DNA of 64,000 nucleotides. It comes from Deltaproteobacteria bacterium. GTDB lineage: Bacteria > Desulfobacterota > Desulfobacteria > Desulfobacterales > C00003060. A model generated the notes under the pieces. The model did no database searches. It was given only the letters and a program-made list of their open reading frames with translations, and had not been told where the DNA came from. Every line of letters starts with the position of its first letter. Position 1 is the first letter of the stretch. The position numbers and the translations under genes were made by a program. This document shows, piece after piece, positions 10,343 through 63,926 of the stretch. Location of the stretch: positions 3,535 through 67,534 of the forward strand of contig JAFDKF010000028.1 in assembly GCA_019307135.1 (NCBI GenBank). The letters are read 5' to 3'.

Positions 10343-10390
10343 ATAAAATCGCTTCGCGATTTTAGACGACGCGGCTTCGCCGCTGAAAAA
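10343..10390. repeat. two-hairpin element, family E (ATAAAATCGC-n3-GCGATTTTA plus GC hairpin plus A-run), copy 1
   Basis: ataaaatcgcttcgcgattttag..gcggcttcgccgc tgaaaaaa. A second copy lies at 61703-61757. Confidence 0.6.
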
Positions 10391-10600
10391 ATAAGGATAA
10401 CAAGTAACAAAGAGTAGCTGAGCTGTCAATGCCCAACACAAGGGGCATTGTAGAGGATCTTGCGCAAGCCCTAAGAGGGAATGGAAATCCTGGAGCGCGC
10501 CATCGAGGCCATCGCCCCGAACGACACGGGCGTGACCTTGAAATCACGATATGTTGAGACCATTGCTTGCTTGACACACAAGCCTTATTTTTCTATGATT

Positions 10601-10766
10601 GTATACTTGTAAAAGGAATTCTTTACTGGATTCCCGCCTTCGCGGGAATGACGATTGGGTGCAAGTACCTGTCATTCCCGCGGAGGCGGGTACTGTTCTC
10701 AAGGCTTAAGCCGCAATCCAGTGAATAGTCGCAAAACATGATTTGCCCCAACTTTTTGAGAACTTA
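10601..10766. mobile_element. MITE-like palindromic element, family A, degenerate copy
   Basis: Core ggattcccgccttcgcgggaatgacg..gtcattcccgcggaggcggg, plus the right end ccagtgaatagtcgcaaaacatgatttgccccaactttttgagaacttac. A 24-nt insertion is present and the left end is decayed. Confidence 0.6.
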
Positions 10767-10812
10767 CGGAAATCAGGAACAAAATCGCATAGATGAATAA
10801 CATGCTCAAGGA

Positions 10813-11820
10813 ATGAGAATACTGCTTGTTCAGACAAGTTTCCTGGGAGATACAATTCTCTCTACTCCTGTTATTTCTGGCATCAAAAAGATTTATCCCG
10901 ATGCTGAGCTCTGGATGATGACAACACCGCTTGCCTCCTCGCTTGTCGTGCGCGATCCGCTTCTTGCTGGAGTTCTTACGTATGACAAGCGAGGACAGGA
11001 TGCAGGATTCTCTGGTCTGCTGCGAATGGAACGTCGAATCAGGGCGATGAGGTTTGACAGGGTGTATTCGCTTCATCGTTCTTCCCGCACGTCGATGCTG
11101 CTCTGGCTTTGCGGCATTCCAGTTCGCATCGGATTTGCGAATGCCAGGCTCAGCTTTCTCTATCATGAGATACGAGAACGAAATCCTAAAGACCATGATG
11201 TAGTCCGCAATCTGTCATTGCTTTCCGGGGAGGCTCCTCTCGAGTCACTGGAAGCGGAGCTCCGTTTATTCCCGCCCTTGAGAGACGAGCTTGACAATGA
11301 CATTAACAGAATGCTGCCTCAGCCTGCTGGTTATGTGGTACTTGTACCCGGAAGTGTTTGGAAAACCAAGATGTGGCACTGGAAGGGGTATCGTGAGGTA
11401 GCTCAGTTTTTGCTCAAACGAGGTTTTGCGGTGGTTCTCCTGGGAGCGCCATCAGATGAAGAGGTGAACGCCATGGTGGCTCAGGGGCTTGAAGTCGTCA
11501 ATTTTGCAGGAAAAACGAGTATCGCAGACGCGATGTACATTATAAAGAATGCAAGGCTCGTTGTGTGTAACGACAGTATGGCCCTTCATATTGCTTCTGC
11601 ATTTAAGGTTCCGAATGTTGCGATTTTTTGTGCGACATCCCCGCAATTTGGATTTTGTCCATGGAAGAATAAGGCAATCGTGATGGAAAAAGACCTTGCT
11701 TGCAAGCCTTGCAGCCGGCACGGGGGAAAAACGTGCCCAACGGGAACTGAGGCTTGCATGAAGGAACTTTCACATGTTGAAGTAATAAGCGCGACTAAAA
11801 CATTGCTGGATATTCAATGA
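10813..11820 (+). CDS. ADP-heptose:LPS heptosyltransferase (GT9)
   Basis: MRILLVQTSFLGDTILSTPV, VVLVPGSVWKTKMW and VVCNDSMALHIASAF are GT9 signatures. WaaC versus WaaF cannot be decided. Confidence 0.8.
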   Translation: MRILLVQTSFLGDTILSTPVISGIKKIYPDAELWMMTTPLASSLVVRDPLLAGVLTYDKRGQDAGFSGLLRMERRIRAMRFDRVYSLHRSSRTSMLLWLCGIPVRIGFANARLSFLYHEIRERNPKDHDVVRNLSLLSGEAPLESLEAELRLFPPLRDELDNDINRMLPQPAGYVVLVPGSVWKTKMWHWKGYREVAQFLLKRGFAVVLLGAPSDEEVNAMVAQGLEVVNFAGKTSIADAMYIIKNARLVVCNDSMALHIASAFKVPNVAIFCATSPQFGFCPWKNKAIVMEKDLACKPCSRHGGKTCPTGTEACMKELSHVEVISATKTLLDIQ

Positions 11821-12524
11821 GTACGGCACTAACCAAGACATATGATTCGTATCATTTCGGATTGGCATCGGATCTTGCTGACCGACAATTGAAACAGCTC
11901 GTTAGACTATTCAATACGCCTACAAATACCGTTGATTCGGTCCTTGGCGGAAGAAGCTCAGTTACCATTGCCCAGATTGAAGGGATAGGATCTGTGGTCG
12001 TTAAGTATTATACCCGCGGAGGGCTTCTTCGATACATGGTCAAACGAAGGTACGTGAAGTGGGGGGAAACCCGTTGCCAGACTGAGTATGAGCTATTGCA
12101 AAAAGTAAGGAACCTCGGTGTAAGTGCCCCCGAACCGATTGCCTATGCCTTCCAGGGCAGCTTGTTTTATAAAGGGTGGCTGGTAACCAGAGAGATTAAA
12201 CAGAAACAAACACTTGCTGAACTCAGTTGTGCAGATGAGGAACATGCTCAGATTGCGATGAAAGAGCTCATCAATCAGGTCTCCACTCTTGTCAACAATA
12301 ATATCTTTCATGTCGATTTGCATCCTGGCAATGTATTAGTGGACAGTCATGACCGCGTATTTCTCCTTGATTTTGACAAGGCCTGTCTTTCTCGGAAAAA
12401 CAAGAATAAGCTGCGAGATCAATACCTCAGTCGTTGGCGGCGCGCGGTAATCAAGCATCGGTTGCCGGAGATGCTCTGCGAAATGATGTGCACCGGACTT
12501 GGCAAAAATTACGAAGCTGAGTGA
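11817..12524 (+). CDS. Kdo kinase (KdkA)-like small LPS kinase
   Basis: 235 aa with VVKYYTRGG, FHVDLHPGNVLV and LLDFDKA. Size and motifs fit 3-deoxy-D-manno-octulosonate kinase. ATGA overlap with the upstream GT9. Confidence 0.55.
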   Translation: MSTALTKTYDSYHFGLASDLADRQLKQLVRLFNTPTNTVDSVLGGRSSVTIAQIEGIGSVVVKYYTRGGLLRYMVKRRYVKWGETRCQTEYELLQKVRNLGVSAPEPIAYAFQGSLFYKGWLVTREIKQKQTLAELSCADEEHAQIAMKELINQVSTLVNNNIFHVDLHPGNVLVDSHDRVFLLDFDKACLSRKNKNKLRDQYLSRWRRAVIKHRLPEMLCEMMCTGLGKNYEAE

Positions 12525-15474: not shown

Positions 15475-15540
15475 ATTCTCAAAAAGTGGAGTTGTCAATA
15501 TTCACCACAGAGCACACGGAGACCGCAGATTAATGAATTT

Positions 15541-15734
15541 ATGGCATCCTTCATTTAGTAGTTTACACTCTGATCATGAGTTTTTTAGTAAATTTTTCAG
15601 TTTCTAAGCTGTCATTCCCGCGAAAGCGGGAATCCATAAAGGATACAACCACCGGATTCCCGCCTTCGCGGGAATGACGAATCAAACATACTCTAAAAAG
15701 TGTAAACTACTTTCGTCGAAATATGAAACATGCC
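15541..15734. repeat. family C shell (ATGGCATCCTTCATT..GTTTACAC inverted ends) enclosing a family A core
   Basis: Left end atggcatccttcatttagtagtttacac, right end agtgtaaactac..aaatatgaaacatgcc. The interior holds gtcattcccgcgaaagcgggaatcc and ggattcccgccttcgcgggaatgacg. Confidence 0.6.
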
Positions 15735-15778
15735 GAATTTATTATATTTTTTCTCTGCGCTCTCTGCGTCCTCTGTGG

Positions 15779-18289
15779 TTAATTATTTTTCTCCTCTTCC
15801 CCAAACGGCTTAAAAACGACTAACAGTTGTGGCAGCAGCGTCAGGTCGGCAATTAAGGCAATTAACATTGCCAATCCTGTCAGAAGGCCGAAATATATAC
15901 TCGGAATGAAATTGGACAAAACCAGGATTGAAAAACCGATGATGATCGTCACTGACGTATAGTACATGGCGTGGCCGATGGTTCCGTGGCAGCGATGAAC
16001 CGTCTTAATATAATTCCGATCGACTTTGAACTCATGTTTGAATCTGTGGATATAGTGAATCGTGTCATCGACAGCAATCCCTACACTAATTGCCGCGATT
16101 GTAATTGTCATCATGTCAAGGGGAATATTCAGCCAGCCCATGACACCAAGGACTACACCAATGGGAAGCATATTGGGAAAAATGGCGATGAGCGCTATTT
16201 TCAAAGACTTGAACAGGATCAGAAACATGCTCATCAACGCTAGTACGACTACTCCCAGAGTCAGGACCTGTGAACTGAACAGGCTCTGGAGCATATTGTT
16301 GTATAACACCAGCATCCCGGTTAAATGTGCATGCTCTTTCTTGATACCCAGTTTGCTGACCAGGTCATGTCGGATCTCTTTCAGCAACTTATCCCGCTTT
16401 AATGATTTTTCTGAATCCCTGACTCGGATTGAGAAACGGACCTCATCATTCTCCACGGACACATAAGGTTTTACCACCGTGCTTTTGAACTCGTCAGGTA
16501 TTTTGCTGTACAGCAGGGCCAGTGCAAAATTGTCTAACTCCTTGCCGTTGTTTAACTTTCTGCCGATCTTCATTATCGTTTCCAGTGACAGGACCTTGCC
16601 GGTTTCCGGCAGGCTGTCAAGATAATCATGGATTTTCTCAACCTGGGCCATCTTGTCAGAAGTAAACCAGTATTTCTCATCGTGTTGTGCTTCATCGAAT
16701 TCATCAAAGTCCTCAAATTCATCCTCATTTTGGGCGTCGGTTTCAGGTGCAACCTTTTGTGCTAATGCTTCGGGTTCATCCAATTCGATAATCACATCCA
16801 GGGGGGTGGTGCCACCCAGATTTTGATCAATAACTTTCATGCCCTGATAGATCTCGGTCGTATGTTTAAAGTAATCAATAAAACTGTTTTCAACCGCCAG
16901 CCTTGAGATCCCGATGGCACTGACAATAAAGGTAATACAACTTATTACCATTATCATGACGCCATGGGCTTCGGTGAATCTGGCTAAAAATGATGTCAAT
17001 GAGAAGTGTGAGTTCCGTCTGGCCTGTGGAGTTCCTTTTTTCATCAGCATTAACAGGGCAGGAAAGAGCAGGAATGTCATTACGAGAGAGAGGGTAATAC
17101 CGGCACTCATCATCCAGCCAAAGGTTATAACTGGCAGGATATCGCAGAGCAGCAGCGAACCAAACCCGGCGATAGTAGTCAGCGCGGCATACAGGCAGGG
17201 CCTCAGCATCAAAGAGACGGCATCGAGGATAAGCTTCCGGTGCTCAGCTTCAGGGTTATTGAAATGGAGTTCGCGGTACCGCACGATCAGATGGATCGTA
17301 ATCGCCATGGTGATGATAAGCTGTAAGGATATAAAGTTAGAGGATATAACAGTGACCTCCCAGCCAAACAATCCCAGCAGCCCCATCATAGAAATTGCAG
17401 AAAAAGCACAGCAGAGGATGGGCAAAAAGATCCAGCGCATTTTTCTAAAAACAACGCTTAAGGCGACGACCAGGAGAAAAAAAACCCCGAGACCGAATGT
17501 CTTAAGGTCGTTTTTGATAAACCTGATCAGGTCGTCTGCGATCATGCTAATACCGCCCAGAAAAAGTTCGGCATCCTGACGGTAGTTGTCCATAATCGCA
17601 CGAATTGCAGCAATATCCTGATGCCGGGCTTTTTTCATCTTGTCCCGGTGTTTTTGAAATTGCACGGCAACTTTTTTGAATTCAGCGACCTCTGCCGCAG
17701 ACAGCCGGTTAGTGGCTTGTTTTTCCCGCAAATGGTTGCGACGGGCCAGTAGATCCTGATAGATCTCATCGATCGGGAATTTGATCTGGAGTGCTGTCGT
17801 CTTAAGATCGGGGCTGACCAGCAGGTTTTGGTAGAGGGGACTCTTGCTGAACTCGATCCTGGCCAGTTTTTTGTCAACCGTTGGCGATTCGAGAGTCGGG
17901 AGATTGCTGGCCAGTTCCTTGAGCGGCACAGGCGGGCTTTCCAGCAAAGGGACATCCAGTATTGAAACTACCGATGACACCCGTTCCACCTGCTTTAATT
18001 CGTCCCGCAGTCGGGTCAGGTTTGCCAGCACCTTATCTGAAAACAAATCGTTTTTGGGGACATAGGCCATCAATAAATAATCTTGTAGTCCATAGCGCGA
18101 ATTAATAAGCCGCGAGTAACGCAGGTCTATGTCATGCTCGAGAACCAGCGTTTCCGCTGATGCGTCAAGCTTGAAGTCCTTAGCCTTATAGCCGAGGAAA
18201 GAAACCACCGCCAGAAGACAGATAATGACGAGTCCCGGCCGCTCAAGGATGACCTTGTCGAAAAAACGTCTCGGCAGTGAATGAAGCAA
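15779..18289 (-). CDS. RND-superfamily MMPL/HpnN-like transporter (COG1033-type predicted exporter)
   Basis: 836 aa with two 6-TM bundles (approx aa 260-415 and 690-825), each preceded by a large soluble domain. This is the MMPL/SSD-type layout. Start is TTG. Confidence 0.8.
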   Translation of the reverse strand: MLHSLPRRFFDKVILERPGLVIICLLAVVSFLGYKAKDFKLDASAETLVLEHDIDLRYSRLINSRYGLQDYLLMAYVPKNDLFSDKVLANLTRLRDELKQVERVSSVVSILDVPLLESPPVPLKELASNLPTLESPTVDKKLARIEFSKSPLYQNLLVSPDLKTTALQIKFPIDEIYQDLLARRNHLREKQATNRLSAAEVAEFKKVAVQFQKHRDKMKKARHQDIAAIRAIMDNYRQDAELFLGGISMIADDLIRFIKNDLKTFGLGVFFLLVVALSVVFRKMRWIFLPILCCAFSAISMMGLLGLFGWEVTVISSNFISLQLIITMAITIHLIVRYRELHFNNPEAEHRKLILDAVSLMLRPCLYAALTTIAGFGSLLLCDILPVITFGWMMSAGITLSLVMTFLLFPALLMLMKKGTPQARRNSHFSLTSFLARFTEAHGVMIMVISCITFIVSAIGISRLAVENSFIDYFKHTTEIYQGMKVIDQNLGGTTPLDVIIELDEPEALAQKVAPETDAQNEDEFEDFDEFDEAQHDEKYWFTSDKMAQVEKIHDYLDSLPETGKVLSLETIMKIGRKLNNGKELDNFALALLYSKIPDEFKSTVVKPYVSVENDEVRFSIRVRDSEKSLKRDKLLKEIRHDLVSKLGIKKEHAHLTGMLVLYNNMLQSLFSSQVLTLGVVVLALMSMFLILFKSLKIALIAIFPNMLPIGVVLGVMGWLNIPLDMMTITIAAISVGIAVDDTIHYIHRFKHEFKVDRNYIKTVHRCHGTIGHAMYYTSVTIIIGFSILVLSNFIPSIYFGLLTGLAMLIALIADLTLLPQLLVVFKPFGEEEKNN

Positions 18290-18324: not shown

Positions 18325-18473
18325 GTAACTTCTCAAAAAGTCTGGGTAATAGCTACTGGATTCCCGCCTTCGCGGGAATGACGATTGGCTGCAAATGCCT
18401 GTCATTCCCGCGAAGGCGGGAATCCAGTGAATAGTCGCAAAACATGATTTGCCCCAACTTATTGAGAAGTTAC
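18325..18473. mobile_element. MITE-like palindromic element, family A, full 149-bp copy
   Basis: The terminal inverted repeat gtaacttctcaaaaagtctgggtaa / ..ccccaacttattgagaagttac flanks two GC hairpins (attcccgc-cttc-gcgggaat). Same length and layout as 38257-38405. Confidence 0.7.
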
Positions 18474-19200: not shown

Positions 19201-19248
19201 GGGTTCACGGTTCAGAGGTTCAGGGTTCACCGAAAATCTGAACCGTTG
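19201..19248. repeat. GTTCAC-word hairpin fragment
   Basis: gggttcacggttcagaggttcagggttcaccgaaaatctgaaccg. Confidence 0.5.
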
Positions 19249-19274
19249 ATTCGCAAGTTCTGACTGGAGAAGGC

Positions 19275-19340
19275 ATGAGAATAGATCGATTTGAGGATAT
19301 TGAGGCATGGCAGTTGGCCCGGGAGCTAACTCGCAAGGTC
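19275..19340 (+). pseudogene. remnant of a four-helix-bundle (23S rRNA intervening-sequence type) protein gene
   Basis: ATG 19275 reads MRIDRFEDIEAWQLARELTRKV, the conserved N-terminus of that family. The frame then runs straight into a GTTCAC-word repeat and stops. Confidence 0.5.
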
Positions 19341-19581
19341 GTAACCATTCACGGGTTCAATGGTTCAGGGGTTCAGGGTTCACCGAACAAATGTTGAGAG
19401 CTGACCCCTTGTCACCGCCCGGTTGATGATTGAAAAAACAATCGACAATCGACAACCCCTGGCCCAGACCTGATTTACGGAGGCAGCAGCCTCTTCCAAT
19501 CAAGTCGCACCAGGGCGGGCGTAAATCGACAATCAAAAAAGGTAACCCTGAACGGTGAACTCTGAACCTGTGAACGCCTAC
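19341..19581. repeat. GTTCAC-family palindromic element (241 bp)
   Basis: Ends are gtaaccattcacgggttca.. and ..ctgaacctgtgaacgcctac. The interior holds caatcgacaatcgacaacc and aatcgacaatc words. Confidence 0.65.
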
Positions 19582-22573: not shown

Positions 22574-22714
22574 GTAACCGTTCACGGGTTCAGAGGTTCA
22601 GTTAAAAGAATAGAGGTCAGAGATCAGAGGTCGGAGGTCTGGCTTCTGATCTCTGACTTCTGAACTCTGATCTCTGACTTCTGAACGGTGAACTCTGAAC
22701 CTGTGAACGCCTAC
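22574..22714. repeat. GTTCAC-family palindromic element (141 bp), nested arms
   Basis: Outer arms gtaaccgttcacgggttcagaggttcag / ctgaacggtgaactctgaacctgtgaacgcctac. Inner arms gaggtcagagatcagaggtcggaggtc / gatctctgacttctgaactctgatctctgacttc. The element starts 6 nt from the kdsA ATG. Confidence 0.75.
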
Positions 22715-23595: not shown

Positions 23596-23614
23596 GGTTT
23601 TACCTAAAGTGATC

Positions 23615-23712
23615 GGTTCAAGGTTCACGGTTCACGGTTCACGGTTCACGGTTCACGGTTTTAACCTCTGAACGTTGAACCGTTGAACCTTGAACCGTTG
23701 AACCGCTCAACC
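23615..23712. repeat. heptamer array (GGTTCAC)x5 paired with GTTGAAC-word arm
   Basis: ggttcaaggttcacggttcacggttcacggttcacggttcacgg tttta acctctgaacgttgaaccgttgaaccttgaaccgttgaaccg. Confidence 0.75.
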
Positions 23713-25003
23713 TAGATTTTACTCGTTTGTTCAGGTATTCGGTTATAAGCCCACACGCCCGGGCCGTCCCCCCCTGACGCGTTTTAACGTACTTAAGCGC
23801 GGCCTCTTGTACTTTTTTACGGTCAGGCGGCTGCTCTATCTCCCGGGCAAGCGTGTCCGCTGCCTCCTTCCAGTCAGAAACTTCACGGAGCAAACCCTGT
23901 TCCACTATTTCCAGGCCTACCCAGGAAAAGCTTTCCCAGTACCGGCCGATCACAGGTATTACTCCGCATAGCAGTGCTTCAAGAAAGTTCTGGCCGCCGA
24001 GCGGAGCAAGTGAACCTCCGACAAAAATAGCCGCGGCCAGCTGGTAGGCCATGGTCAATTCGCCAAATGTATCCCAGAGGATCACAGAACCTTTTTGAAC
24101 AGGTGGCCCTGTTTTTGACCGGAGCAACCACGGTATTTTAAGACGGTCAAGTGTCTTTGCCCACACCCCGATCCTGTGCATATGGCGTGGGAACAGCCCG
24201 ATTACTGTTTCAGGATGCCGGCCCGAGATGTCCGCAATGATCTTTTCAATGTCATCCTCTTCTTCCTGCCGGACAGAGCCCAGGACAAGAAACGGCGCGT
24301 CCGCCGGGATGATCTGCTTTACCCTGTTCTCCCCCGCGGGCGTATTCACGCTGTCTGCCGCCCGGTCGAATTTAATGTTCGGCATTGCACTGACCCTCTC
24401 TCTGCCGAATATCGCGGCAAACCGGTTTGCGTCATCTTCAGACACGGCAAGAATCCTGTCAGGGCTAAGTGAACGCGTAAGGGACGGCCATACCGTGTAT
24501 CTTTTTACATATTTTTCAGTAAGCCTGCCGTTTATGACACATATTTTACAGCCGCTTTTTTTCAGGGCTGACAGATGGCCGGGCCAGATTTCCGTCTCAA
24601 GAAGGACCATAAGCCGGGGCTGTATTTTCCGGACAGCTTTTTCCATAATTGAGGGACGGTCAAAAGGGAAATAGGCGGTTTCCGCTGTAATGCCCCTTGT
24701 GTTTGGCGTAATGTCACTGACAGCCTTTTCCAGTATTCCCATCCCCTGGACCGTGTTTGTTGTCAGGACAATTTTTACAGGATTTTCAGGATACAATGTT
24801 TTTAAAATCGACCATGCCAGGAAGGATTCGCCGACAGAGGCGGCCTGGATCCACAGGTCCGCAGGTCCGGATATTTCCCTTTTAAGAACCCGCTGGTCAA
24901 AACCGTCCGCAAGCCGTCTGTTTAACCTTAAAGCGGGGATGACAAGTCTCCATAAGAAATCATACAGAAGAAATGCGGTTTTTTCGGTTATTCCTGAAGG
25001 CAC
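23639..25003 (-). CDS. waaA: Kdo transferase
   Basis: WIQAASVGE, a GT30 Kdo-transferase N-domain and FVGGSLAPLGGQN. GTG start. The last ~25 codons (SRLSGSTVQGSTVQRSEVKTVNREP) are encoded by a heptamer repeat. Confidence 0.9.
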   Translation of the reverse strand: MPSGITEKTAFLLYDFLWRLVIPALRLNRRLADGFDQRVLKREISGPADLWIQAASVGESFLAWSILKTLYPENPVKIVLTTNTVQGMGILEKAVSDITPNTRGITAETAYFPFDRPSIMEKAVRKIQPRLMVLLETEIWPGHLSALKKSGCKICVINGRLTEKYVKRYTVWPSLTRSLSPDRILAVSEDDANRFAAIFGRERVSAMPNIKFDRAADSVNTPAGENRVKQIIPADAPFLVLGSVRQEEEDDIEKIIADISGRHPETVIGLFPRHMHRIGVWAKTLDRLKIPWLLRSKTGPPVQKGSVILWDTFGELTMAYQLAAAIFVGGSLAPLGGQNFLEALLCGVIPVIGRYWESFSWVGLEIVEQGLLREVSDWKEAADTLAREIEQPPDRKKVQEAALKYVKTRQGGTARACGLITEYLNKRVKSRLSGSTVQGSTVQRSEVKTVNREP

Positions 25004-25032
25004 GTATCAGGTTCCTCAAGCTTAATATAAGC

Positions 25033-25237
25033 GTAGGCGTTCACAGGTTCAGAGTTCACCGTTTCAGCCGTCGTAGCCTGCCGACTTCGCCATAGTAGCC
25101 ATAGGCTACGACGGCTGAAACGGCTACTATGGCGAAGTCGGCTCAGGGTTATCTTTCTTTCGTTAACCTTGCTTGTAGGACGGTTCAGATTTCGGTGAAC
25201 CCTGAACCTCTGAACCATTGAACCAATGAACGCTTAC
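25033..25237. repeat. GTTCAC-family palindromic element (205 bp) with interleaved-stem core
   Basis: Ends gtaggcgttcacaggttcagagttcaccg / cggtgaaccctgaacctctgaaccattgaaccaatgaacgcttac. For the core see the finding at 25064-25142. Confidence 0.7.
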
Positions 25238-25238
25238 C

Positions 25239-25829: not shown

Positions 25830-25936
25830 GTTACCTTCCTTCGGAACTTAGGGGCTTCGCCCCAATTGGAGTATTGGAGTACTGGAGTGATGGATTTACA
25901 TGACAGCAATATATTCCCATCAAATAGGCCATTATT

Positions 25937-26073
25937 TCAATAGGTTCTAAAATTTCTGAGTAACTTCTCAAAAAGTTCGGGTATGTTTATTATGAGCCAG
26001 TTTGCTGGATGCCCGCTTTCGCGGGCATGACGGGGGATTTATTACATTCGTCATTCCTGCGAAGGCGGGAATC
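25937..26073. mobile_element. MITE-like element family A, right end truncated
   Basis: ttcaataggttctaaaatttctgagtaacttctcaaaaagttcgggta..ggatgcccgctttcgcgggcatgacg..gtcattcctgcgaaggcgggaatc. Its left flank is shared with the 18.3 kb copy. Confidence 0.6.
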
Positions 26074-26748: not shown

Positions 26749-26838
26749 GGCCTCCGGCCGGTAGGCTTCCGGCCTCCGGCTCGTAGAGCCTACGCCTCGG
26801 AGAGCTCGTAGAGCCTACAGCTCGGAGAGGCCTACGCC
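26749..26838. repeat. direct word repeats (cctccggcc x2, tcgtagagcctac x2, ctcggagag x2)
   Basis: Read directly in the spacer between the kinase-like and SGNH genes. Confidence 0.5.
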
Positions 26839-28323: not shown

Positions 28324-28427
28324 GTAACCGTTCACAGGTTCACCGTTCACCGTTCAGATTTTCGGTGAACCCTGAACCCTGAACCCTAAACCCTGAACCC
28401 TGAACCTCTGAACCCGTGAACGGTTAC
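28324..28427. repeat. GTTCAC-family palindromic element, compact 104-bp copy
   Basis: Perfect 12-nt termini gtaaccgttcac / gtgaacggttac. The arms are made of ggttcac and gaaccct heptamers. Confidence 0.8.
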
Positions 28428-28614: not shown

Positions 28615-28803
28615 GGATAAACCGGAAATCCGAAGCACGAAATTCGAAACTCGAAACAAATCCAAAATCCAAATCTTCGAATGTTCAAAACATGGAATCT
28701 AAACTATTCGAGATAATTATGGTTGTGGATTCAGTTTTGGTCATTTGAATTTTGAAAATTGAAAATTTGTTTCGGATTTCGATATTCGGATTTCGAATTT
28801 ATT
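28615..28803. repeat. CGAAATCCGAA-family palindromic element, copy 1
   Basis: Left arm ataaaccggaaatccgaagcacgaaattcgaaa, right arm tttcggatttcgatattcggatttcgaatttatt. Confidence 0.7.
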
Positions 28804-31052: not shown

Positions 31053-31226
31053 TCAGCTTTCTATCGGCTTTGCTTCATCGATGAGCATGATGGGAATGTC
31101 ATCCTTTATTTCATAAAGGAGTTTGCACTTGTCACAGATAAGTCCATCTTTTGTTTCATTCAGATAAATGTCCCCTTTGCATTTGGGACAGGCCAAGATA
31201 TCCAACAACTCCTGACTGATTGCCAT
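31053..31226 (-). CDS. Trm112/YcaR (UPF0434) zinc-ribbon protein, 57 aa
   Basis: Below the ORF-track size cutoff. My translation is MAISQELLDILACPKCKGDIYLNETKDGLICDKCKLLYEIKDDIPIMLIDEAKPIES. GGAGG RBS upstream. E. coli ycaR sits beside lpxK/kdsB. Confidence 0.75.
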   Translation of the reverse strand: MAISQELLDILACPKCKGDIYLNETKDGLICDKCKLLYEIKDDIPIMLIDEAKPIES

Positions 31227-31260: not shown

Positions 31261-31555
31261 GGTTGAGTAGTCGAGTGGTCAAGTGGTCAAGTGGTCAAGT
31301 GGTCAAGTGGTCACTTGTCACTTGTCACTTGTCACTTGTCACTTGTCACTTGTCACTTGTTATTTGTTATTTGTCATTTGTTATTTGTCATTTGTTATCA
31401 GGGAAAGTGAGCTAAAGTGAGCTAAAGTGCCTAAAGTTGAAAACCCCAATTCCGCATTCCGTACTCTTTTCAAGGCGTGAGCCGCAAATCCGCATTCCGT
31501 ACGTTCCTGGTTCACAAACAACCACTCAACTACTCAACTACTCGACCACTCAACC
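31261..31555. repeat. composite microsatellite mosaic inside a GGTTGAG-word hairpin
   Basis: Outer arms ggttgagtagtcgagtggtc / actactcgaccactcaacc. The interior holds (ggtcaagt)x4, (gtcactt)x6, (gttattt/gtcattt)x5, (gagctaaagt)x2+gcctaaagt and ccgcattccgtac x2. Confidence 0.8.
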
Positions 31556-32487
31556 AGATCCCGGATCCACTCATACTCCGTTAGGAGCCCCTCTTGGATC
31601 AACACTTTCGGCTTATATCCCAGTTTTTCTTTAGCCTTGGTCATATCGGCCATGGTGTGCCGCACATCCCCCTTTTGCTTAGCCTGATAGTCTATCTCCA
31701 GTTCTCTGCCCGCTATCTCCTTTATTATTTCAATGACCCCATTCAGAGTAATACGTGAGCCTCCCCCAATATTGAATACCTCGCCTGGAAGAGCTTTTTC
31801 TAAAGCCAGCCAGTTTGCCTCTACAATATCGTCCACGTGAGTGAAGTCTCTGCTCTGTTCACCATCCCCGTATACCTTAAGAGGTTTGTCCTGCAAGGCC
31901 CATGTAAAGAAGCGATGAAAGGCCATGTCTGGTCGCTGCCGGGCACCATAAACCGTGAAATATCGCAGTGAAACCGCTGGTATTCCAAAATTTTTGCAGT
32001 AAAGAAAACAAAGGTGTTCTGCAGCCAACTTTGAAACACCATACGGGGAAACCGGACACGGCAGGGAAGATTCCCTCATGGGAAGATCTCTGGTATCTCC
32101 GTAAACCGAAGAGGAGGAAGCATAAACAAATTTGTTGACAGGTCTTTCCCTGCATGCCTCAAGGAGCATCTGGGTGGCAACAATATTGTTATCAGAGTAA
32201 ATCTTAAAGTTTTGTCCCCAACTTGCCCGCACCCCCGCCTGGGCCGCTTGATGAAAAACGACATCAACCCCGTCCAAAAGCTTTGTCAAGTCCACTTGAA
32301 CAAGGCTCGCTTCAACAAACTCAAAATTCTGATGCTTCCTCAAATCAGCAATACTTGCTTCCTTTATGGATCTAGGATAGTAATCCATAAAATTATCGAT
32401 GCCTACAACCTCAAATCCTTTTTCAATCAAATATTCGCACAAATGCGATCCAATAAAACCAGCCGCCCCTGTCACTAAAGACTTCAT
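31534..32487 (-). CDS. NAD-dependent nucleotide-sugar epimerase/dehydratase (extended SDR)
   Basis: MKSLVTGAAGFIGSHL (GxxGxxG), SSSSVYG and YGVSKLAAE (YxxxK). The stop codon lies in a repeat arm. Confidence 0.85.
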   Translation of the reverse strand: MKSLVTGAAGFIGSHLCEYLIEKGFEVVGIDNFMDYYPRSIKEASIADLRKHQNFEFVEASLVQVDLTKLLDGVDVVFHQAAQAGVRASWGQNFKIYSDNNIVATQMLLEACRERPVNKFVYASSSSVYGDTRDLPMRESSLPCPVSPYGVSKLAAEHLCFLYCKNFGIPAVSLRYFTVYGARQRPDMAFHRFFTWALQDKPLKVYGDGEQSRDFTHVDDIVEANWLALEKALPGEVFNIGGGSRITLNGVIEIIKEIAGRELEIDYQAKQKGDVRHTMADMTKAKEKLGYKPKVLIQEGLLTEYEWIRDLVEWSSS

Positions 32488-34776: not shown

Positions 34777-34881
34777 GTTACCGTTCGCCGTTCACTGTTA
34801 ACCGTTGTCCGCCTTATCGAGCGCATCTGGTCATTACGACCTTCTGTTTGTCGGTGAACGGAAAACGGTGAACGGTCAACC
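34777..34881. repeat. GTTCAC-word hairpin exactly filling the lptF-lptG junction
   Basis: Arms gttaccgttcgccgttcactgttaaccgttg / cggtgaacggaaaacggtgaacggtcaacc. Contains the lptF TGA and ends 2 nt from the lptG ATG. Confidence 0.7.
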
Positions 34882-38169: not shown

Positions 38170-38256
38170 CGAAAGATTTGAACGGAGGACCTAAAAAACC
38201 CTTTCTTAAAAGGTTATTTTATTCCTTTAACTTTAGGCACCTTAGCTCACTTTGGG

Positions 38257-38405: not shown

Positions 38406-38415
38406 ACTTTGGGTG

Positions 38416-39102: not shown

Positions 39103-39197
39103 TGGGTTTGTTGAGTTTGTCGGGTTTGTCGGGTTCATTGAGTTTGTCGGGTTATAACTCAACAAACACAAGAAACCATGTAAACTCAACAAACACG
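39077..39197. repeat. family D hairpin (GGGTTYATTGAG/GGGTTTGTYG words, loop, AACTCAACAAACAC words), copy 1
   Basis: The central ggttataactcaacaaacacaagaaac is shared with copy 2. Contains the lpxB stop and the DUF374 ATG. Confidence 0.7.
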
Positions 39198-40334: not shown

Positions 40335-40405
40335 AACTCATCGTTCGCTTATTAAATTCGTACTTAGATTAATTCTTATATGGACCTAAATCTTTATCCC
40401 GTTTT

Positions 40406-40527
40406 GGTTTCAGGTTTCAGGGCACATGTAGGTTTCAGGTGTCAGTGTTCTCAGGAAAGAGAAACGCAAAAACTGAAACCTGACACCCGACACCTGGAAC
40501 CTGGTTTCTGAAACCCGAAACCTGAGG
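40406..40527. repeat. GGTTTCAGG-word hairpin
   Basis: Arms ggtttcaggtttcagggcacatgtaggtttcaggtgtcag / ctgaaacctgacacccgacacctggaacctggtttctgaaacccgaaacctgagg. Confidence 0.7.
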
Positions 40528-40595
40528 AGTATATAGATTCTCAAAATTAACAAAAGTCTATCCCTATTAAGCGAATGATAAGAGGTCACTTTAGC

Positions 40596-41559: not shown

Positions 41560-41625
41560 GTAGCGTGCCCCCTCTGTGGGGCACATCCCCAAAGGCAATC
41601 GTGGGGGACAGAGCCCCCACGCTAC
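41560..41625. repeat. REP-like three-way structure (outer stem gtagcg/cgctac enclosing two G/C hairpins)
   Basis: gtgcccc-ctctgt-ggggcac and cgtggggg-acagag-cccccacg. Confidence 0.55.
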
Positions 41626-41634
41626 AAACCCTCA

Positions 41635-42441
41635 CTATTCTACACCTATAATCACAATCCCGCTTCGATCAGCCAGTGCAACCATCTCTTCCCTGCCAAA
41701 GACCACCGTCTTGCCTGCCTCAACGGCCAGGACCGACGCTCCAACATCACGCATGGTCTCAATGGTTTTGACCGCGACGGCCGGCATGTCGAATCGCATA
41801 TCCTGGTTGGGCTTACTTGCCTTCACAACGACCGTTTTTTCCTTTCCAAGCCCCCCTCCTCGCGTTATGGTGGCATCAGTACCATCAATAGCCTCAACCG
41901 CCATCACTGACCTGTCCCGAACCACCACAGTCTGGCCAATATCCAACCTTCCAATCTCCTTGACTATACGCCATCCGAAATGTACATCGGCCATCTCGGA
42001 CCTGGTCGGCTTGCGCCGTGTCCAGCATCCTCTTTTTGCCAGGAGTTCGGGCACCAAGAAAGTAGAAGGGTGAATGGTTATCCCCTCTTTTTCCAACTCG
42101 CCGGCAAAGGCCCGCAGGAGTCCATCGTCCTGCGTATGATCCATAGTGGCCAGTACCTTCAGAGCCCTCAGGTCCGGCCTCACCCCTGAAAACATCTTGG
42201 TCTTGGTGATGGCCCCAGCCAATACCGCATCACTGACTCCATTTTCCTTAAAAAATGCAATAAGTCGCTTCAATTGGCCGATCTTTACCCACCTTATCGC
42301 CTCTACAAGGTTTTCCAGTCGGGGATCGGTTTCCCCAACATGGGCTATTGCGTAAACCTTCAACCCCCTTTCCCTGGCCGCCTTTGAAAAAATGCCGGGG
42401 AACTGCCCGCTCCCGGCTATGAGTCCGATTTTTGGGTTCAT
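41635..42441 (-). CDS. lpxI: UDP-2,3-diacylglucosamine pyrophosphatase LpxI (DUF1009)
   Basis: ORF trimmed to ATG 42441. KIGLIAGSGQFP, EIGRLDIGQTVVV and AVEAIDGTDATI are collinear with Caulobacter LpxI as I recall it. Confidence 0.8.
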   Translation of the reverse strand: MNPKIGLIAGSGQFPGIFSKAARERGLKVYAIAHVGETDPRLENLVEAIRWVKIGQLKRLIAFFKENGVSDAVLAGAITKTKMFSGVRPDLRALKVLATMDHTQDDGLLRAFAGELEKEGITIHPSTFLVPELLAKRGCWTRRKPTRSEMADVHFGWRIVKEIGRLDIGQTVVVRDRSVMAVEAIDGTDATITRGGGLGKEKTVVVKASKPNQDMRFDMPAVAVKTIETMRDVGASVLAVEAGKTVVFGREEMVALADRSGIVIIGVE

Positions 42442-42535
42442 TGAGTTCATTGAGTTCATTGAGTTTATTGGGTTTATTGGGTTTATTGGGTCATAACTCG
42501 ACAAACTCAAGAAACTCAACCAACACAATAAACCC
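42434..42535. repeat. family D hairpin, copy 2
   Basis: (ttcattgag)x3 (tttattggg)x3 tcataactcgacaaactcaagaaactcaacc. Contains three in-frame ATGs, the last being the lpxI start. Confidence 0.7.
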
Positions 42536-42546
42536 CAAAAACCGTG

Positions 42547-43763: not shown

Positions 43764-43838
43764 GTGTCATTTCCTTCCAACAGCTTGCCTGTGATTACAA
43801 TTGCTTAACATCAAACGGAAAAGCCGTTGACATGTTGA

Positions 43839-44066
43839 GTGCCTAAAGTGAACTAAAGTGAGCTAAAGTGCCTAAAATTTAATGCATAAAACACACAACT
43901 CTGCCTCGATCATCATTTGGGCCAATCTGTGGGAGCGGCTTTCCGGCCGCGACGGTCGCGGCAAGAATGCCGCTCCCACACAAATGAAGAAGTACCCGAA
44001 ACCATGATCAAGGCCAACAATTCAATAAGCTGTAAGTCCTTGAACTTTAGGCACTTTAGACACTTT
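43839..44066. repeat. CTAAAGTG-word arms enclosing a TGTGGGAGCGGC REP-type hairpin (43928-43980)
   Basis: Arms gtgcctaaagtgaactaaagtgagctaaagtgcc / actttaggcactttagacacttt. Inner hairpin tgtgggagcggctttccggccgcgacggtcgcggcaagaatgccgctcccaca. Confidence 0.7.
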
Positions 44067-44071
44067 GTATT

Positions 44072-45094: not shown

Positions 45095-45112
45095 TGTTCG
45101 TTATTCAAGAAT

Positions 45113-45165
45113 TGTGGGAGCGGCTTTTCAGCCGCGAAGCTCGCGGCAAGAATGCCGCTCCCACA
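45113..45165. repeat. TGTGGGAGCGGC REP-type hairpin, second copy (same orientation)
   Basis: tgtgggagcggcttttcagccgcgaagctcgcggcaagaatgccgctcccaca. With 43928-43980 it brackets lpxD. Confidence 0.7.
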
Positions 45166-45168
45166 AAT

Positions 45169-45741
45169 CTATTGTTTTTTCTTTGACTCCGCCGATTCGC
45201 CTTCTTTCTTGCCACGCTTTGCATCCATGGCATTGTATTCTTCTATGACCTTGTCGGTGATGTCAATGGCGTTGGGTGCGTAAACCACGCCCCCTACACG
45301 ACGATCAATAATCAACGAGTACCCGCCAGCTTTCCCTGTTCTTTCAACTATCTCAAAAACATCTTTCTGGATTTGCCCTAGAAGATTGATGTTGAGATCT
45401 CTTAGAACATCCTGATATCGCCTCTGGAGAGACTTCAGGTCATTAACCTTGACACGCAGGTCCTGTTCCTTTGCCTCGCGTGCCTCATTACTCATGACCA
45501 GGGCCTTTTGATCCAGGGTCTTCCTTAGCTCTTCAATCTCAGCCCCTTTCTTCTTGAGAATCTGTTCCATTTTCTTTCCCTGGCTCTTGATCTCAACGGA
45601 TGACCGCTTACCAGGATTGGATTTGTCGATTATCTTCTGGAGATCGATGACTCCTATTTTTTGCACCTCGGCCCCATAAGCGATTCCGCTCAGGCCAAAT
45701 AAACAAAGGGTTAACGTTAAGAATAGGTTGCGAATATTCAT
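45169..45741 (-). CDS. skp: periplasmic chaperone Skp/OmpH
   Basis: ATG 45741 with a GGAGG RBS. Signal peptide, Lys/Glu-rich coiled coil and the OmpH position between bamA and lpxD. Confidence 0.8.
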   Translation of the reverse strand: MNIRNLFLTLTLCLFGLSGIAYGAEVQKIGVIDLQKIIDKSNPGKRSSVEIKSQGKKMEQILKKKGAEIEELRKTLDQKALVMSNEAREAKEQDLRVKVNDLKSLQRRYQDVLRDLNINLLGQIQKDVFEIVERTGKAGGYSLIIDRRVGGVVYAPNAIDITDKVIEEYNAMDAKRGKKEGESAESKKKQ

Positions 45742-50468: not shown

Positions 50469-50620
50469 GTTAAGCCGGTTGAGCCGGTTAAGCCGGTTTA
50501 TTGGTTGCTGGTCACTGGTTACTGGTTACTCGATGCTGGATGCTGGATACTCGTTACTGGTTACTGGGGTTGCCTTTCATTCCGCAATCCGCAATCCGCA
50601 TTCGTCTCATTCCGCAATCG
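50469..50620. repeat. one-stranded microsatellite mosaic (no inverted partner)
   Basis: (gttaagccg/gttgagccg)x3, (ggttactg/ggtcactg)x5, (gatgctg)x2, (ccgcaat)x3-4. Confidence 0.7.
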
Positions 50621-52097: not shown

Positions 52098-52181
52098 AGT
52101 GGAGCTGTCCGTCTTCGTAGGGTAAGACCTTAGAATTTGTGTCAAGTCTTATCACACTGCCTTTTTTGACATAGGTAGTTT

Positions 52182-52305
52182 CTTGAGTTCGTTGAGTTCG
52201 TTGTGTTTGTTGTGTTAAAGTCCTATGAACTCAATAAACTCAATAAACACTACAAACACAATAAACACAATAAACACAATAAACACAATAAACACAATAA
52301 ACACT
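52182..52305. repeat. GAGTTCGTT/GTGTTTGTT arm paired with (AAACACAAT)x5 nonamer array
   Basis: Left arm cttgagttcgttgagttcgttgtgtttgttgtgtt, right arm gaactcaataaactcaataaacactacaaacacaataaacacaataaacacaataaacacaataaacac. Confidence 0.75.
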
Positions 52306-58061: not shown

Positions 58062-58811
58062 AGTGTACTTTACTTCCCTTAAGAACAGCCCGTGGGCAGG
58101 TGCTGTTATCCCGGCTTGTTTGCGGTCCTTTGATATCAGAATATCCTCAAAGGCCCCTGGCGGGATTTTCCTAAGCCCCACATCAACAAGAGTTCCCACA
58201 ATGTTTCGTACCATGTGCCGCAGGAACCCGTCGGCTTCAATACTGAAGACCACGTAACAATCCGCATCCTTTCCGGTCAGGCTTACATCTATTGCGGTCC
58301 GAACGGCATGGGATCGGGGGCTACCAGCTCCCTCGAAGGCTGAAAAGTCGTGCTCACCCTTCAGGCAAAGCATAGCTGTCCTCATCGCATCGAGGTCAAG
58401 GGGTTTTCTGATGTGCCATGCATACTGCCTGAAGAGGGCAGCCGGGGTGGGCCGATTCAAGATACGGTAATCGTAGACCTTGCTCCGAGCATCGTATCGA
58501 GCATGAAACGTCTCGTCAACCGCTGCACAATCTTTGATGACAATATCTGGAGGAAGGAGGCTGTTCAGGCCTTTTGCAAAGACATCAGACGTGAGTCTCG
58601 TCTCCAGGCAAAAGCTCGCCACCTGGCCTGTGGCATGTACCCCGGCATCGGTTCGTCCGGAACCAATCAGCGTGACGGGCTGTTCTGTCATCGTCTTCAG
58701 CGCATCCTCTATGGTCCCCTGAATCGTACATGTATTACTCTGACGCTGCCAGCCATGATAGCCTGTGCCGTCATATTCGATAATGAGCTTGAAGTTCTGC
58801 AATAGAATCAA
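58050..58811 (-). CDS. truA: tRNA pseudouridine(38-40) synthase
   Basis: IEYDGTGYHGWQRQ, GSGRTDAGVHA, RHMVRNIVG. TTG start. Convergent 12-nt overlap with the ClC gene. Confidence 0.9.
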   Translation of the reverse strand: MILLQNFKLIIEYDGTGYHGWQRQSNTCTIQGTIEDALKTMTEQPVTLIGSGRTDAGVHATGQVASFCLETRLTSDVFAKGLNSLLPPDIVIKDCAAVDETFHARYDARSKVYDYRILNRPTPAALFRQYAWHIRKPLDLDAMRTAMLCLKGEHDFSAFEGAGSPRSHAVRTAIDVSLTGKDADCYVVFSIEADGFLRHMVRNIVGTLVDVGLRKIPPGAFEDILISKDRKQAGITAPAHGLFLREVKYTSGR

Positions 58812-58947
58812 GTGCCTAAAGTGAGCTAAAGTGCCTAAAGTGCCTAAAGTGCCTAAAATTAAAGGAACAAAACTAGATTTTAAAAAAGCTTCTACAAATC
58901 CTCAACTTTAGCTCACTTTAGGCACTTTAGCTCACTTTAGCTCACTT
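58811..58947. repeat. nonamer hairpin (GCCTAAAGT/GAGCTAAAGT)x5 vs (ACTTTAGCTC/ACTTTAGGC)x5
   Basis: The arms at 58811-58857 and 58904-58947 exactly fill the argC-truA spacer. Confidence 0.8.
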
Positions 58948-61757: not shown

Positions 61758-61836
61758 GGAAATTCCTATACTGTGAACATACGTCCCATCTCAGCAATTC
61801 CTGAATGTCAAGAAGCTATCATCAAGCAAAAGTCCT

Positions 61837-62478: not shown

Positions 62479-62542
62479 CTCCTGGAAGGGAGCATTCCCG
62501 GGTTTTTATTGACCTCAGCCATGACGTTTTGCTTGCATCAAG

Positions 62543-62774
62543 AAACCGGAAAATCCGAAATCCGAAATCCGAAGCACGAAACAAATACAAATGACCAAAG
62601 CACAAAATCCTAAACAATATGACATAGAAAATCAAAGGCTTGCATTGGCAAAAAAGACAATACTGCGTCAAGGTGAATAAACGTTTTGAACATTTGATAT
62701 TTGAATTTCGAATTTGTTTGCGGCTTACGCCTTGAAAACAGTACGGATTTCGATATTCGGATTTCGGATTTATT
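62543..62774. repeat. CGAAATCCGAA-family palindromic element, copy 2
   Basis: Left arm aaaccggaaaatccgaaatccgaaatccgaagcacgaaacaaatacaaatgaccaaa, right arm ttgaatttcgaatttgtttgcgg..cggatttcgatattcggatttcggatttatt. Confidence 0.7.
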
Positions 62775-62820
62775 CACAGCGGTGTGAGAATTTGCCAATG
62801 CTCGCGTCTTGGGGTGAACA

Positions 62821-63591
62821 ATGAAGAGACTGTCAGTGCTGTCCCTGAATCTCCGGTTTGGTCTTGCTGACGACGGCCCCAATGCGTGGGACCATCGCAA
62901 ACAGAGCGTGGTGAAGCTTTTTAAGAGACAAAGTCCTGATTTGATTGCCACTCAGGAAGCCAATCATTTCCAGATCGATTTCTTAGCCGAGAACCTGCCT
63001 GAATACAGCTACACAGGGAGACGGCACCCTGCTCCCAAATTCTGGCAGGACAATATCCTGTTTTATCGCAAAACGATCGTTTGCAAGGATAATCTCCACT
63101 TTTTCTTGAGTCAAACACCCCATATCCCGAGCCGGTCTTTTGGAAGCCGCTATCCCAGGCAGGGCACCCTTGGGCTTTTCCATCTCAACAGCCAACCCTT
63201 AATTTGTATTGACACCCACTTTGATTTTGAGACACCCGCCCAGATGGGAGCCGCGCGGGTGATCAAGGAACAACTGGCATCATATGATCATGAGATTCCA
63301 ACCATTCTCATGGGCGATTTCAACGCCACACCCGAAAGCCTTTGCTATCAATGGCTGACGGGCAAAGAGGTCGATGGAAAAAATGGCTTGGATTTTAGTG
63401 AAACCTTTACGATGCCCTATCCCAGCACATTCCATCGATTCACGGGGGAGCCGGCTGGCGGTTACATTGACTGGATATTGTACAGGGGACCTGTCCGCCT
63501 TAAAGCTTGTGAGGTCCTGCAAGGGCCGGTAGACGGGACCTACCCTTCAGACCACTTTCCTGTAACAGCCATCTTTGAGTTAGGCGCTTAG
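62821..63591 (+). CDS. endonuclease/exonuclease/phosphatase (EEP) family protein
   Basis: SLNLRFG, LIATQEA, GDFN and a C-terminal SDHFPV. Confidence 0.8.
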   Translation: MKRLSVLSLNLRFGLADDGPNAWDHRKQSVVKLFKRQSPDLIATQEANHFQIDFLAENLPEYSYTGRRHPAPKFWQDNILFYRKTIVCKDNLHFFLSQTPHIPSRSFGSRYPRQGTLGLFHLNSQPLICIDTHFDFETPAQMGAARVIKEQLASYDHEIPTILMGDFNATPESLCYQWLTGKEVDGKNGLDFSETFTMPYPSTFHRFTGEPAGGYIDWILYRGPVRLKACEVLQGPVDGTYPSDHFPVTAIFELGA

Positions 63592-63644
63592 CGACGTAAC
63601 ATCGACAAGAGATTGTCGGTATGACATAATTTTTTGTATTTATT

Positions 63645-63926
63645 TGGCATCCTTCATTCCTCGGTTTACACTTATCAAGGATGCGGGCGCCAAGAGATAA
63701 GTTCTTTTGTTCCTACTTTTTGGTGTCAGGTGTACTTTTTGGTGTCGGGTGTCAGGTTTCAGGTGTCAGGTGCAAGAAACACTGACACCTGAAACCTGAA
63801 CACTGAAACCTGAAACCTGAAACCTGAAACCCCAAATCTGAAACCTGAACACTGAAACCTGAAACCTGAAACCTGGGGTGGTGAAAAAAAGTGTAAACTA
63901 CTTTATGGCGAAAATGAAGGATGCCA
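63645..63926. repeat. family C shell enclosing a GGTGTCAGG / GAAACCT-heptamer hairpin core
   Basis: Shell tggcatccttcatt..ggtttacac / gtgtaaactac..aaaatgaaggatgcca. Core ggtgtcaggtgt..ggtgtcgggtgtcaggtttcaggtgtcagg versus (gaaacct)n. Confidence 0.7.

Follow-up and report, generated by a model that had tools for sequence, protein, structure and literature searches.

Hairpins made of heptamers of the short tandemly repeated repetitive (STRR) type, a feature of filamentous cyanobacteria, have lacked an explanation since 1990. The subject of this study is a set of comparable structures, arrays of short words that face their own complements, in the spacers of a 64-kb stretch of DNA (hereafter, the window) from an uncultured Desulfobacterales bacterium; it was compared with approximately 1.3 Mb of related loci (123 loci or contigs, labelled L001, L002 and so on). 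On balance, we favour the view that these spacers contain nested mobile palindromes, similar to doublets of repetitive extragenic palindromic (REP) sequences (REPINs) and to miniature inverted-repeat transposable elements (MITEs), together with STRR-like arrays that vary by slippage, any effects on RNA being secondary. STRR hairpins between co-transcribed cyanobacterial genes (hupS-hupL) have been described earlier, and their function was left open (PMC2670836). As in those cases, the units described here are tandem, intergenic and mostly of 7 nt, and hairpins between co-transcribed genes can arise by the pairing of an array with its complement. The window differs in its Desulfobacterales host, in having approximately twenty word families with periods of 7–10 nt, in systematic nesting, in conserved ends and copies at non-orthologous sites, and in a polarity by which the G-rich arm comes first (G-first).

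REP sequences are defined as palindromes tagged with GTAG or CGTC (PMC3733652), and doublets in the window fit that definition. Like REPs and REPINs, the elements studied here are short, multi-copy intergenic palindromes whose inverted doublets form larger hairpins, mainly between genes of the same direction (PMC3733652, PMC3116915). True tagged doublets are situated at 41560–41625, 15608–15680, 18354–18473 and 38257–38405. A previous reading of the window from its letters alone (the sequence-only reading) had likened the spacers to STRR heptamers combined with REP palindromes and bacterial interspersed mosaic elements, and the comparison is apt, GTAG/CGTC doublets being physically present. 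Most arms of the word arrays, in contrast, are tandem sub-repeats that pair only with a distant partner and are not 20–40-bp self-palindromes, and no gene for a REP-associated tyrosine transposase (RAYT) was found among the window proteins.

MITEs and the small dispersed repeats (SDRs) of Nostoc share with the present elements terminal inverted repeats (TIRs) and lengths of 60–350 bp; both also have copies at various loci and in various genomes, and both are found inserted in other repeats. The elements here differ in that a target-site duplication is seen at one copy only and in that many of the hairpins have ragged ends and are built of nothing but arrays. No autonomous partner was identified among the proteins scanned from the window and related loci. 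SDRs embedded in tandem heptamer repeats were reportedly described by Elhai et al. in 2008.

The TAACTGA repeats of marine Beggiatoaceae, and long simple sequence repeats (LSSR) of 5–11 nt, consist of a single word repeated in direct orientation, for which no secondary structure is predicted; only one inverted case was recorded among 170 sets (PMC4679880). They resemble the arrays of the window in being intergenic and heptameric, in often abutting start codons with weak Shine–Dalgarno sequences, and in their patchy, apparently horizontal spread among sediment and filamentous bacteria (PMC4679880). The window differs in having many words, mostly in inverted pairs, with strong predicted structure. 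No description of such an organisation in Desulfobacterales was found in the papers searched, which is weak evidence of novelty.

Short-word arrays are concentrated between genes

Genes were modelled from long open reading frames (ORFs), some gene starts being inferred. Arrays were called with Tandem Repeats Finder (TRF; score at least 30, short periods, overlapping calls merged) and compared with those in 20 dinucleotide shuffles. The window contains 66 short-period arrays amounting to 2398 nt, as against 3–12 arrays and 59–251 nt in the shuffles. Approximately 50 of them lie within the approximately 9.2 kb outside long ORFs; array matches inside ORFs are 18–20 nt long and at chance level. 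The observation of short-word arrays in the intergenic DNA was confirmed, nearly all of the arrays being situated between genes. Nor are the words equally common in coding DNA. Most of those listed in the sequence-only reading are 7–100 times denser in non-coding than in coding DNA, with weaker enrichment for GGTTCAA, CCGCAAT and GGTTACTG (approximately 2–2.5-fold) and for CGCAGAG (4.6-fold). Between 10.3 and 64 kb, arrays or recurring 14-mers cover 33% of non-coding bases versus 2.1% of coding bases.

TRF arrays were found in 24 of the 31 spacers longer than 60 bp between 10268 and 64000, or in 26 of 33 once two spacers masked by over-long ORFs are included, and four further spacers contain REP-type palindromes only. 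The earlier estimate of 30–32 of 38 spacers is about right only if all palindromic repeats are counted. Of the spacers longer than 60 bp, 22 of the 27 whose flanking genes share a direction contain arrays, and two of the four divergent ones contain small arrays. Among 489 arrays from the window and the 123 related loci, the prevailing periods are 7 nt (168 arrays), 8 nt (83), 9 nt (88) and 10 nt (64), and 67 of 153 adjacent array pairs in the same material are inverted and complementary. The words shift gradually along some arrays (31266–31556).

Facing arms, hairpin potential and nesting

The inverted arms are 27–49 nt long and 73–100% complementary. Seven loci, five of them among the examples given in the sequence-only reading, were folded and compared with 200 shuffles. 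The z values ranged from −3.3 to −9.0, and 0 of 200 shuffles folded as well, in agreement with the claim that complementary arms face each other at those loci. It is also apparent that the nesting previously noted, of one word family within another, is real. The spacers are nested palindromes, in which the outer arms, from one family, surround either arms that belong to a different family or a palindrome rich in G+C (e.g. 43764–44071, 25004–25238, 37995–38415, 15499–15778 and 22574–22714). The last of these consists of End B at 22574–22601 and End A at 22681–22714 on the reverse strand (both ends are described below), with inner AGAGGTC / TCTGACC arms (z −8.5).

Two arrays had been thought to be without partners. 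One of them, 31281–31437, has a partner, (GTGACAA)n with (TTGACCAC)n (z −5.2), as part of a layered set at 31266–31556 that comprises GTCACTT x12, AGTGGTCA x6, a solitary AAAGTGAGCT and outer arms CAACCACT / GTAGTTGAGTGG. The other, at 50469–50620, is indeed without one (z +2.0). Its arrays, at 50469–50600, are GTTAAGCCG x3, TTACTGG x10 and TCCGCAA x3; the sense strand there reads G-rich words followed by approximately 100 nt of C/A-rich, unstructured words.

An arm paired with its own partner scores approximately 30–60, compared with a median of approximately 13 for arms taken from other loci, and the own arm ranked in the top 3 of 37 loci in 25 cases. Yet for most of the large same-family loci, an arm borrowed from elsewhere scored equally well or better (47 versus 56, 46 versus 61, 42 versus 62 and 32 versus 59). 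Because same-family arms from elsewhere pair as well or better, complementarity is a property of the element family and not of the locus. The proposal that arms are matched locus by locus is accordingly not upheld; for loci of one family, complementarity is no better within loci than between them, an outcome that the sequence-only reading had itself named as refuting. Such pairing across loci is what copies of an element should show when its inverted ends are imperfect. The related idea of freely combined modules of 7–12 nt is weakened as well, the words being sub-repeats of longer conserved element ends.

Conserved ends and multi-copy elements

End A, GTAGGCGTTCACAGGTTCAGAGTTCACCGTT, which starts GTAGGCGTTCAC..., is found in exact form at 19548–19581, 22681–22714 and 25033–25063, and in L025 and L095; the flanks are unrelated from GTAG on. 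End B, GTAACCGTTCACGGGTTCAGAGGTTCAG, has two copies (22574–22601 and 28400–28427). Among the word arrays, a GTAG start is seen only at End A, and the arms of the arrays are not self-palindromic units. These ends bound several GGTTCAC-type elements: a composite at 19201–19581 (arrays at 19201–19229 and 19348–19383, then End A); an element at 25033–25231 that is led by End A and has GGTTCA-word outer arms around a perfect 21-bp palindrome; and a hairpin at 28327–28427 that terminates in End B on the reverse strand.

A second type is a multi-copy element of approximately 150 bp, consisting of inverted ATTCCCGCGAAGGCGGGAAT palindrome doublets within an outer 25-nt inverted repeat, GTAACTTCTCAATAAGTCCGGGTAA. 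Doublets are located at 10624–10767, 15608–15680, 18354–18473, 25935–26073 and 38257–38405, with CGTC on one unit of each. The copy at 15608–15680 is nested in the outer inverted repeats of the spacer 15499–15778, and that at 38257–38405, which has the outer 25-nt repeat, adjoins a partial CTAAAGTG hairpin (38172–38253). The ATTCCCGCGAAGGCGGGAAT core resembles the neisserial dRS3 motif, ATTCCC-N8-GGGAAT. The GTAG-tagged doublet at 41560–41625 (GTAGCGTGGGGGCTCTGTCCCCCACG ... GTGCCCCACAGAGGGGGCACGCTAC) is inverted and REPIN-like, and it recurs in L083 after a CTAAAGTG array.

A third type resembles a MITE. It has the TIR CTTATCATTCGCTTAATA / TATTAAGCGAACGATGAG and a small size, about 240–330 bp, and its window copy, 40343–40582, contains internal AGGTGTC/AGGTTTC versus GAAACCT arrays. 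This copy lies between gfo and lpxB, and in L009 the element is found at the DUF374–msbA junction. A candidate target-site duplication, TGGTAA/TGGTAA, was seen at one copy only (L009), and none is evident at the window copy. An AAATCCG / CGGATTT element, likewise MITE-like and among the few C-first families, is present at 28617–28802 and at 62551–62771, within a match that covers 62550–62794, and a third copy is situated in the lpxB–DUF374 spacer of L009.

A further element, CCCGCCCTGG...GGTCTGGGCCAGGG, is 62–102 nt long and is found inside arrays of three word families, where its position within the unit is constant. In the window, its 63-nt form, CCCGCCCTGG...GGCCAGGG (19457–19519), splits the (ACAATCG)n array that begins at 19438–19455; other sites are in L009 (three), L012, L038, L052, L002, L102 and L018. 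No obvious target duplication was seen at its insertions into arrays. Judged from these sites, it behaves like a mini mobile element that targets arrays. Since it splits arrays of three word families, nesting is best accounted for by insertion.

Potential mobilisers were sought with Pfam among 40 window proteins and 10 non-syntenic ORFs of related loci. The sole transposase match was an ISAzo13-family DDE transposase in Desulfonema magnum, which has CCTAACA arrays on either side.

Spacers turn over faster than the genes beside them

The loci closest to the window by LpxA are from cold-seep metagenome-assembled genomes (98%), and that of D. magnum is 70% identical. Although genes are 75–98% identical in the relatives, the spacers between them do not align. 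Even where the genes are 86–98% identical, the spacers of the relatives differ completely. Identical spacers in distant relatives, which would have spoken for static ancient sequence, were not found; even strains at 98% differ in their spacers.

The lpxA–lpxI junction is illustrative. Most lineages have 4–14 nt there. The window has approximately 115 nt, as do L003, L004 and L010, and in L012, L014 and L088 the junction extends to 200–220 nt and is composed of different words; L002 and L082, the genes of which are 98% identical, retain just two units of one arm. In the window it is occupied by a 9-mer hairpin (42429–42543; z −6.4). Between L003 and L004, the difference is a single 9-nt unit beside the lpxI start, and it affects just one of the two arms; the change is in frame and has no evident on/off consequence. 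Differences between strains were not compensatory, although this concerns four sequences, and a periodic array can be paired in more than one register. At lpxI–gfo, four strains that are approximately 98% identical have four different spacers, and the CTAAAGTG family occurs at that junction in many lineages. Spacers are thus polymorphic both for the presence of elements and for the number of units. Single words, such as AGGCACTT, remain in otherwise empty junctions.

An independent Joint Genome Institute (JGI) metagenome contig matches 13.4 kb of the window, arrays included, at 99.8%. Over 13.4 kb, the window and L001 differ by one single-nucleotide polymorphism and one 26-nt indel, the only indel, exactly at a hairpin apex (40451–40476). 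This may be a true apex deletion or an assembly difference.

Across the Desulfobacterales, array density is patchy, and certain words are common to many genomes (CTAAAGTG, TGGAGTA, GGTTCAC, AGGTGTC/GAAACCT and TAGTCGAG). An (ACCAATG)n family in the relatives is apparently a rotation of the STRR2 unit, TTGGTCA. D. magnum contains direct arrays, the longest of 50 heptamers, as well as a single array hairpin. Its locus L064 (CP061800; 598–1291, 11037–11177, 11231–12523 and 14444–14795) includes a 78-nt repeat present 8.9 times at 98% identity and (ATGACAA)x50, and (CCTAACA)x20 lies directly upstream of its ISAzo13-family transposase gene, with a short CCTAACA array downstream.

Repeats at the ends of genes

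Several genes begin or end inside repeats. The start codon of lpxI (ATG at 42441) lies within the last CTCAATGAAC unit of the 9-mer hairpin, and no Shine–Dalgarno sequence is present upstream. The last codons and TGA stop of the GFO/IDH/MocA oxidoreductase gene derive from a CTAAAGTG array (40586–40610, minus strand), the stop falling within a CTAAAGTGA word, and the relatives end differently. In waaA, the last approximately 25 codons and the stop are inside the (GGTTCAC)n / (GTTGAACC)n hairpin at 23614–23713 (z −8.9). As judged from sequence comparison, insertions overwrite gene ends and so truncate or extend the proteins.

A separate observation concerns the sequence just before the lpxI start in L088, L093, L097–L102 and L109, which reads ...(C)CAATGAC(C/T)ATG or ...GTGACCATG even where there is no array. 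These bases could be what remains of a unit, or else a functional leader.

RNA-level tests and the polarity of the arms

Several properties expected of structures selected as RNA were sought. The minimum free energy of folding is similar on both strands. In 19 hairpins oriented in the sense direction, 741 matches, 43 G·U-type, 35 A·C-type and 96 transversion mismatches were counted (approximately 81% pairing), so the arm mismatches bear no signature of the sense-strand RNA (G·U 43 versus A·C 35). The argument for selection at the RNA level was dropped because neither folding energy nor mismatch type shows strand asymmetry. A scan of the whole window against Rfam gave no match. Terminator-like sites are not above chance (13 versus 16.0 ± 4.4 in shuffles), with none at the word hairpins of 36–53 kb, and a promoter scan of the same interval gave nothing above shuffles.

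The order of the arms, on the other hand, is strongly biased. Among the 67 inverted array pairs from the window and the 123 loci, the 5′ arm has more G than C in 57 and more C than G in 5; CTAAAGT precedes ACTTTAG arrays in 22 cases and follows them in none. When exact inverted 10-mers were compared as a control, the G-first ratio was 56:10 in array hairpins and 67:56 in other inverted repeats. Word families were grouped by hand, automatic clustering having chained nearly all into one cluster; approximately 19 are G-first and 2 are C-first, but the families may share descent and are not fully independent. G-first polarity reads alike on either strand, so that the C/A-rich, G-poor arm is closest to the downstream gene in either reading direction. 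Possible causes are selection against a C-rich Rho loading site that is exposed before the partner arm is transcribed, an advantage of a CA-rich leader beside the downstream start codon, and a bias inherent in the generating mechanism.

Origin of the arrays

The sequence-only reading had offered three roles: RNA 3′-end or stability elements, translation control, and the footprint of a mobile or templated repeat-generating mechanism. It is the last that the comparative data support, the first two having gained no positive support. The mobile-element view that we favour is argued for by the sharp conserved ends with unrelated flanks, by the same composite at different junctions and by the fast turnover of spacers, and further by insertions that overwrite gene ends, by the patchy distribution with shared words and by the presence of GTAG/CGTC REP doublets. 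On this view, the spacers would have been colonised by several families of small, non-autonomous hairpin repeats, namely REP/REPIN-like doublets, the TIR-bounded MITE-like element, STRR-like hairpins whose arms are arrays of tandem 7–10-nt sub-repeats, and the approximately 63-nt mini-element. Copies would be spread in trans by enzymes encoded elsewhere, none being encoded in the window; they would survive only between genes and would frequently land in earlier repeats, giving nested arms in mirror order. Arrays would gain and lose units by replication slippage and erode by deletion, and arms would be complementary since each element is an inverted repeat, not through matching locus by locus. 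Transcribed within operons, the elements would yield intercistronic stem–loops, any effect of which on mRNA stability or translation would be a by-product. Such effects might at most filter which insertions survive, and G-first polarity may be one such filter. Several observations do weigh against this view. No transposase or RAYT was found among the window proteins or the scanned flanks of close relatives, and a target-site duplication is visible at a single copy. G-first polarity is not predicted by simple transposition, and approximately twenty word families that share one architecture would call for numerous enzymes or for a single tolerant one. The gradual morphing of words along arrays and the single words left in empty junctions fit growth in place too.

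Selection by the host for RNA elements, serving as protection from 3′ exonucleases, for the coupling or gating of translation, or as sites for an RNA-binding regulator (as proposed for the Beggiatoaceae TAACTGA repeats), seems unlikely to us. It would suit the preponderance of arrays in same-direction over divergent spacers, the placing of the lpxI start in the last hairpin unit without a Shine–Dalgarno sequence, the C/A-rich, G-poor arm next to the downstream gene and the recurrence of the CTAAAGTG family at lpxI–gfo in many lineages, and such roles have been assigned speculatively to the STRR hairpins of cyanobacterial operons (PMC2670836). Roles in RNA stability or translation are unsupported, however, because the hairpins are not conserved at orthologous junctions, even in strains at 98%, and because there is no excess of G·U over A·C, no Rfam match and no terminator signature. 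Transversions are also numerous, both strands fold equally and proteins are truncated or extended by the insertions. Less likely still is growth in place without transposition, in which slippage would amplify a local word and synthesis at a hairpin or break, by fold-back or template switching, would make the opposite arm. Growth of the palindromes should then start at the centre and proceed outward, the G-rich strand being directed 5′ to 3′ toward the apex on both strands. The restriction of G-first polarity to array hairpins, the gradual word change, the ‘seed’ words in empty junctions, the likeness of ATGAA-type native start regions to adjacent units, the one-unit change between strains and the 26-nt indel exactly at an apex all accord with it. 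It does not account for identical ends of 28–34 nt at unrelated loci and in other genomes, nor for the same composite element at different junctions, and arms that match their partners no better than those of other loci argue against continuing arm-to-arm templating. We regard as similarly doubtful, and if anything slightly more so, that a dedicated mechanism, indifferent to the word, produces or maintains the array hairpins and is shared by horizontal transfer between bacteria of sediments and filamentous bacteria (Desulfonema with its relatives, Beggiatoaceae and cyanobacteria). Candidates would be a structure-directed enzyme, fold-back synthesis that adds G-rich repeats toward the apex, or a host protein that reads heptads; if true, this would account for G-first polarity as well as for the fact that so many word families have a single architecture. 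Finally, an assembly artefact or chance low-complexity sequence has next to no probability. The window is metagenome-derived and related contigs often end near repeats, but the independent JGI contig reproduces the arrays, similar ones are present in dozens of independent assemblies and in the complete D. magnum genome, and shuffles contain approximately 7-fold fewer. The independent assemblies effectively refute it.

CRISPR, intrinsic terminators and simple phase-variation loci were ruled out as identities for the arrays on period, missing T-tract and location; most arrays lie outside ORFs and promoters.

Further features of the window

Additional hairpins were identified at a CCGTTCAC / GTGAACGG pair in the lptF–lptG junction (34777–34881), between lpxB and the DUF374 gene (39077–39194; a 9-mer hairpin, GGGTTCATTGAG-type / AACTCAACA), and upstream of a class II aminoacyl-tRNA synthetase gene (52178–52304; a 9-mer hairpin, TTGAGTTCG / AACACAATA x8.6; z −3.3). 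At 43843–44066, CTAAAGTG / CACTTTAG outer arms surround another inverted repeat together with an inner GTGGGAGCGGC... palindrome, of which a copy is situated at 45108–45170. The CTAAAGTG(A/C)(G/C)C hairpin at 58810–58947 has a 27-nt core that is 100% complementary (z −9.0), and GGTGTCAGG pairs with GAAACCT x14 at 63714–63875 (z −5.8). G+C-rich tandem repeats of 22–25 nt (GGCCTCCGGCTCGTAGAGCCTAC) at 26749–26835 also form hairpins, and related sequence is found in L009 (~17380–17420) at the msbA–lptF junction.

Between approximately 15.7 and 52 kb, the minus strand carries a long outer-membrane and lipid A cluster (MlaA/MlaC, KdsA, KdsB, WaaA, LpxK, LptF/G, MsbA, LpxB, LpxI, LpxA, FabZ, LpxD, Skp, BamA and LolCDE-like proteins), with housekeeping genes beyond it. 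A small ORF at 31101–31226 on the minus strand (MAISQELLDILACPKCKGDIYLNE...) follows directly after the large array cluster and has a strong Shine–Dalgarno sequence; it falls outside the list of ORFs of at least 80 aa, and by eye its product looks like a Trm112/YbaR-type zinc-ribbon protein. In L093 and L106, several hundred bases of unrelated, structured-looking sequence replace gfo downstream of lpxI, and may represent an inserted element.

The first part of the window (1–10267) encodes glycosyltransferases and kinases of the lipopolysaccharide (LPS) core and a lipid A acyltransferase, with a G+C content down to 42%. Its four spacers longer than 60 bp contain zero arrays, and this part may have a history that differs from that of the remaining window. 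A 63-nt tandem duplication (8677–8797; 1.9 copies, 82% match) is situated within a glycosyltransferase family 2 gene (8333–9211).

Significance

The repeats have practical consequences for the study of these bacteria. They account for short contigs in related assemblies, and they cause mis-annotation, since starts, stops and up to approximately 25 terminal codons of lipid A/LPS genes lie within repeats. Spacers evolve much faster than genes and could therefore resolve strains of seep sulfate reducers. The G-first array hairpins and the array-targeting mini-element provide mechanistic starting points. Taken together, the data extend STRR-like hairpins to the Desulfobacterales, including the cultured Desulfonema magnum, in which their origin could be tested.

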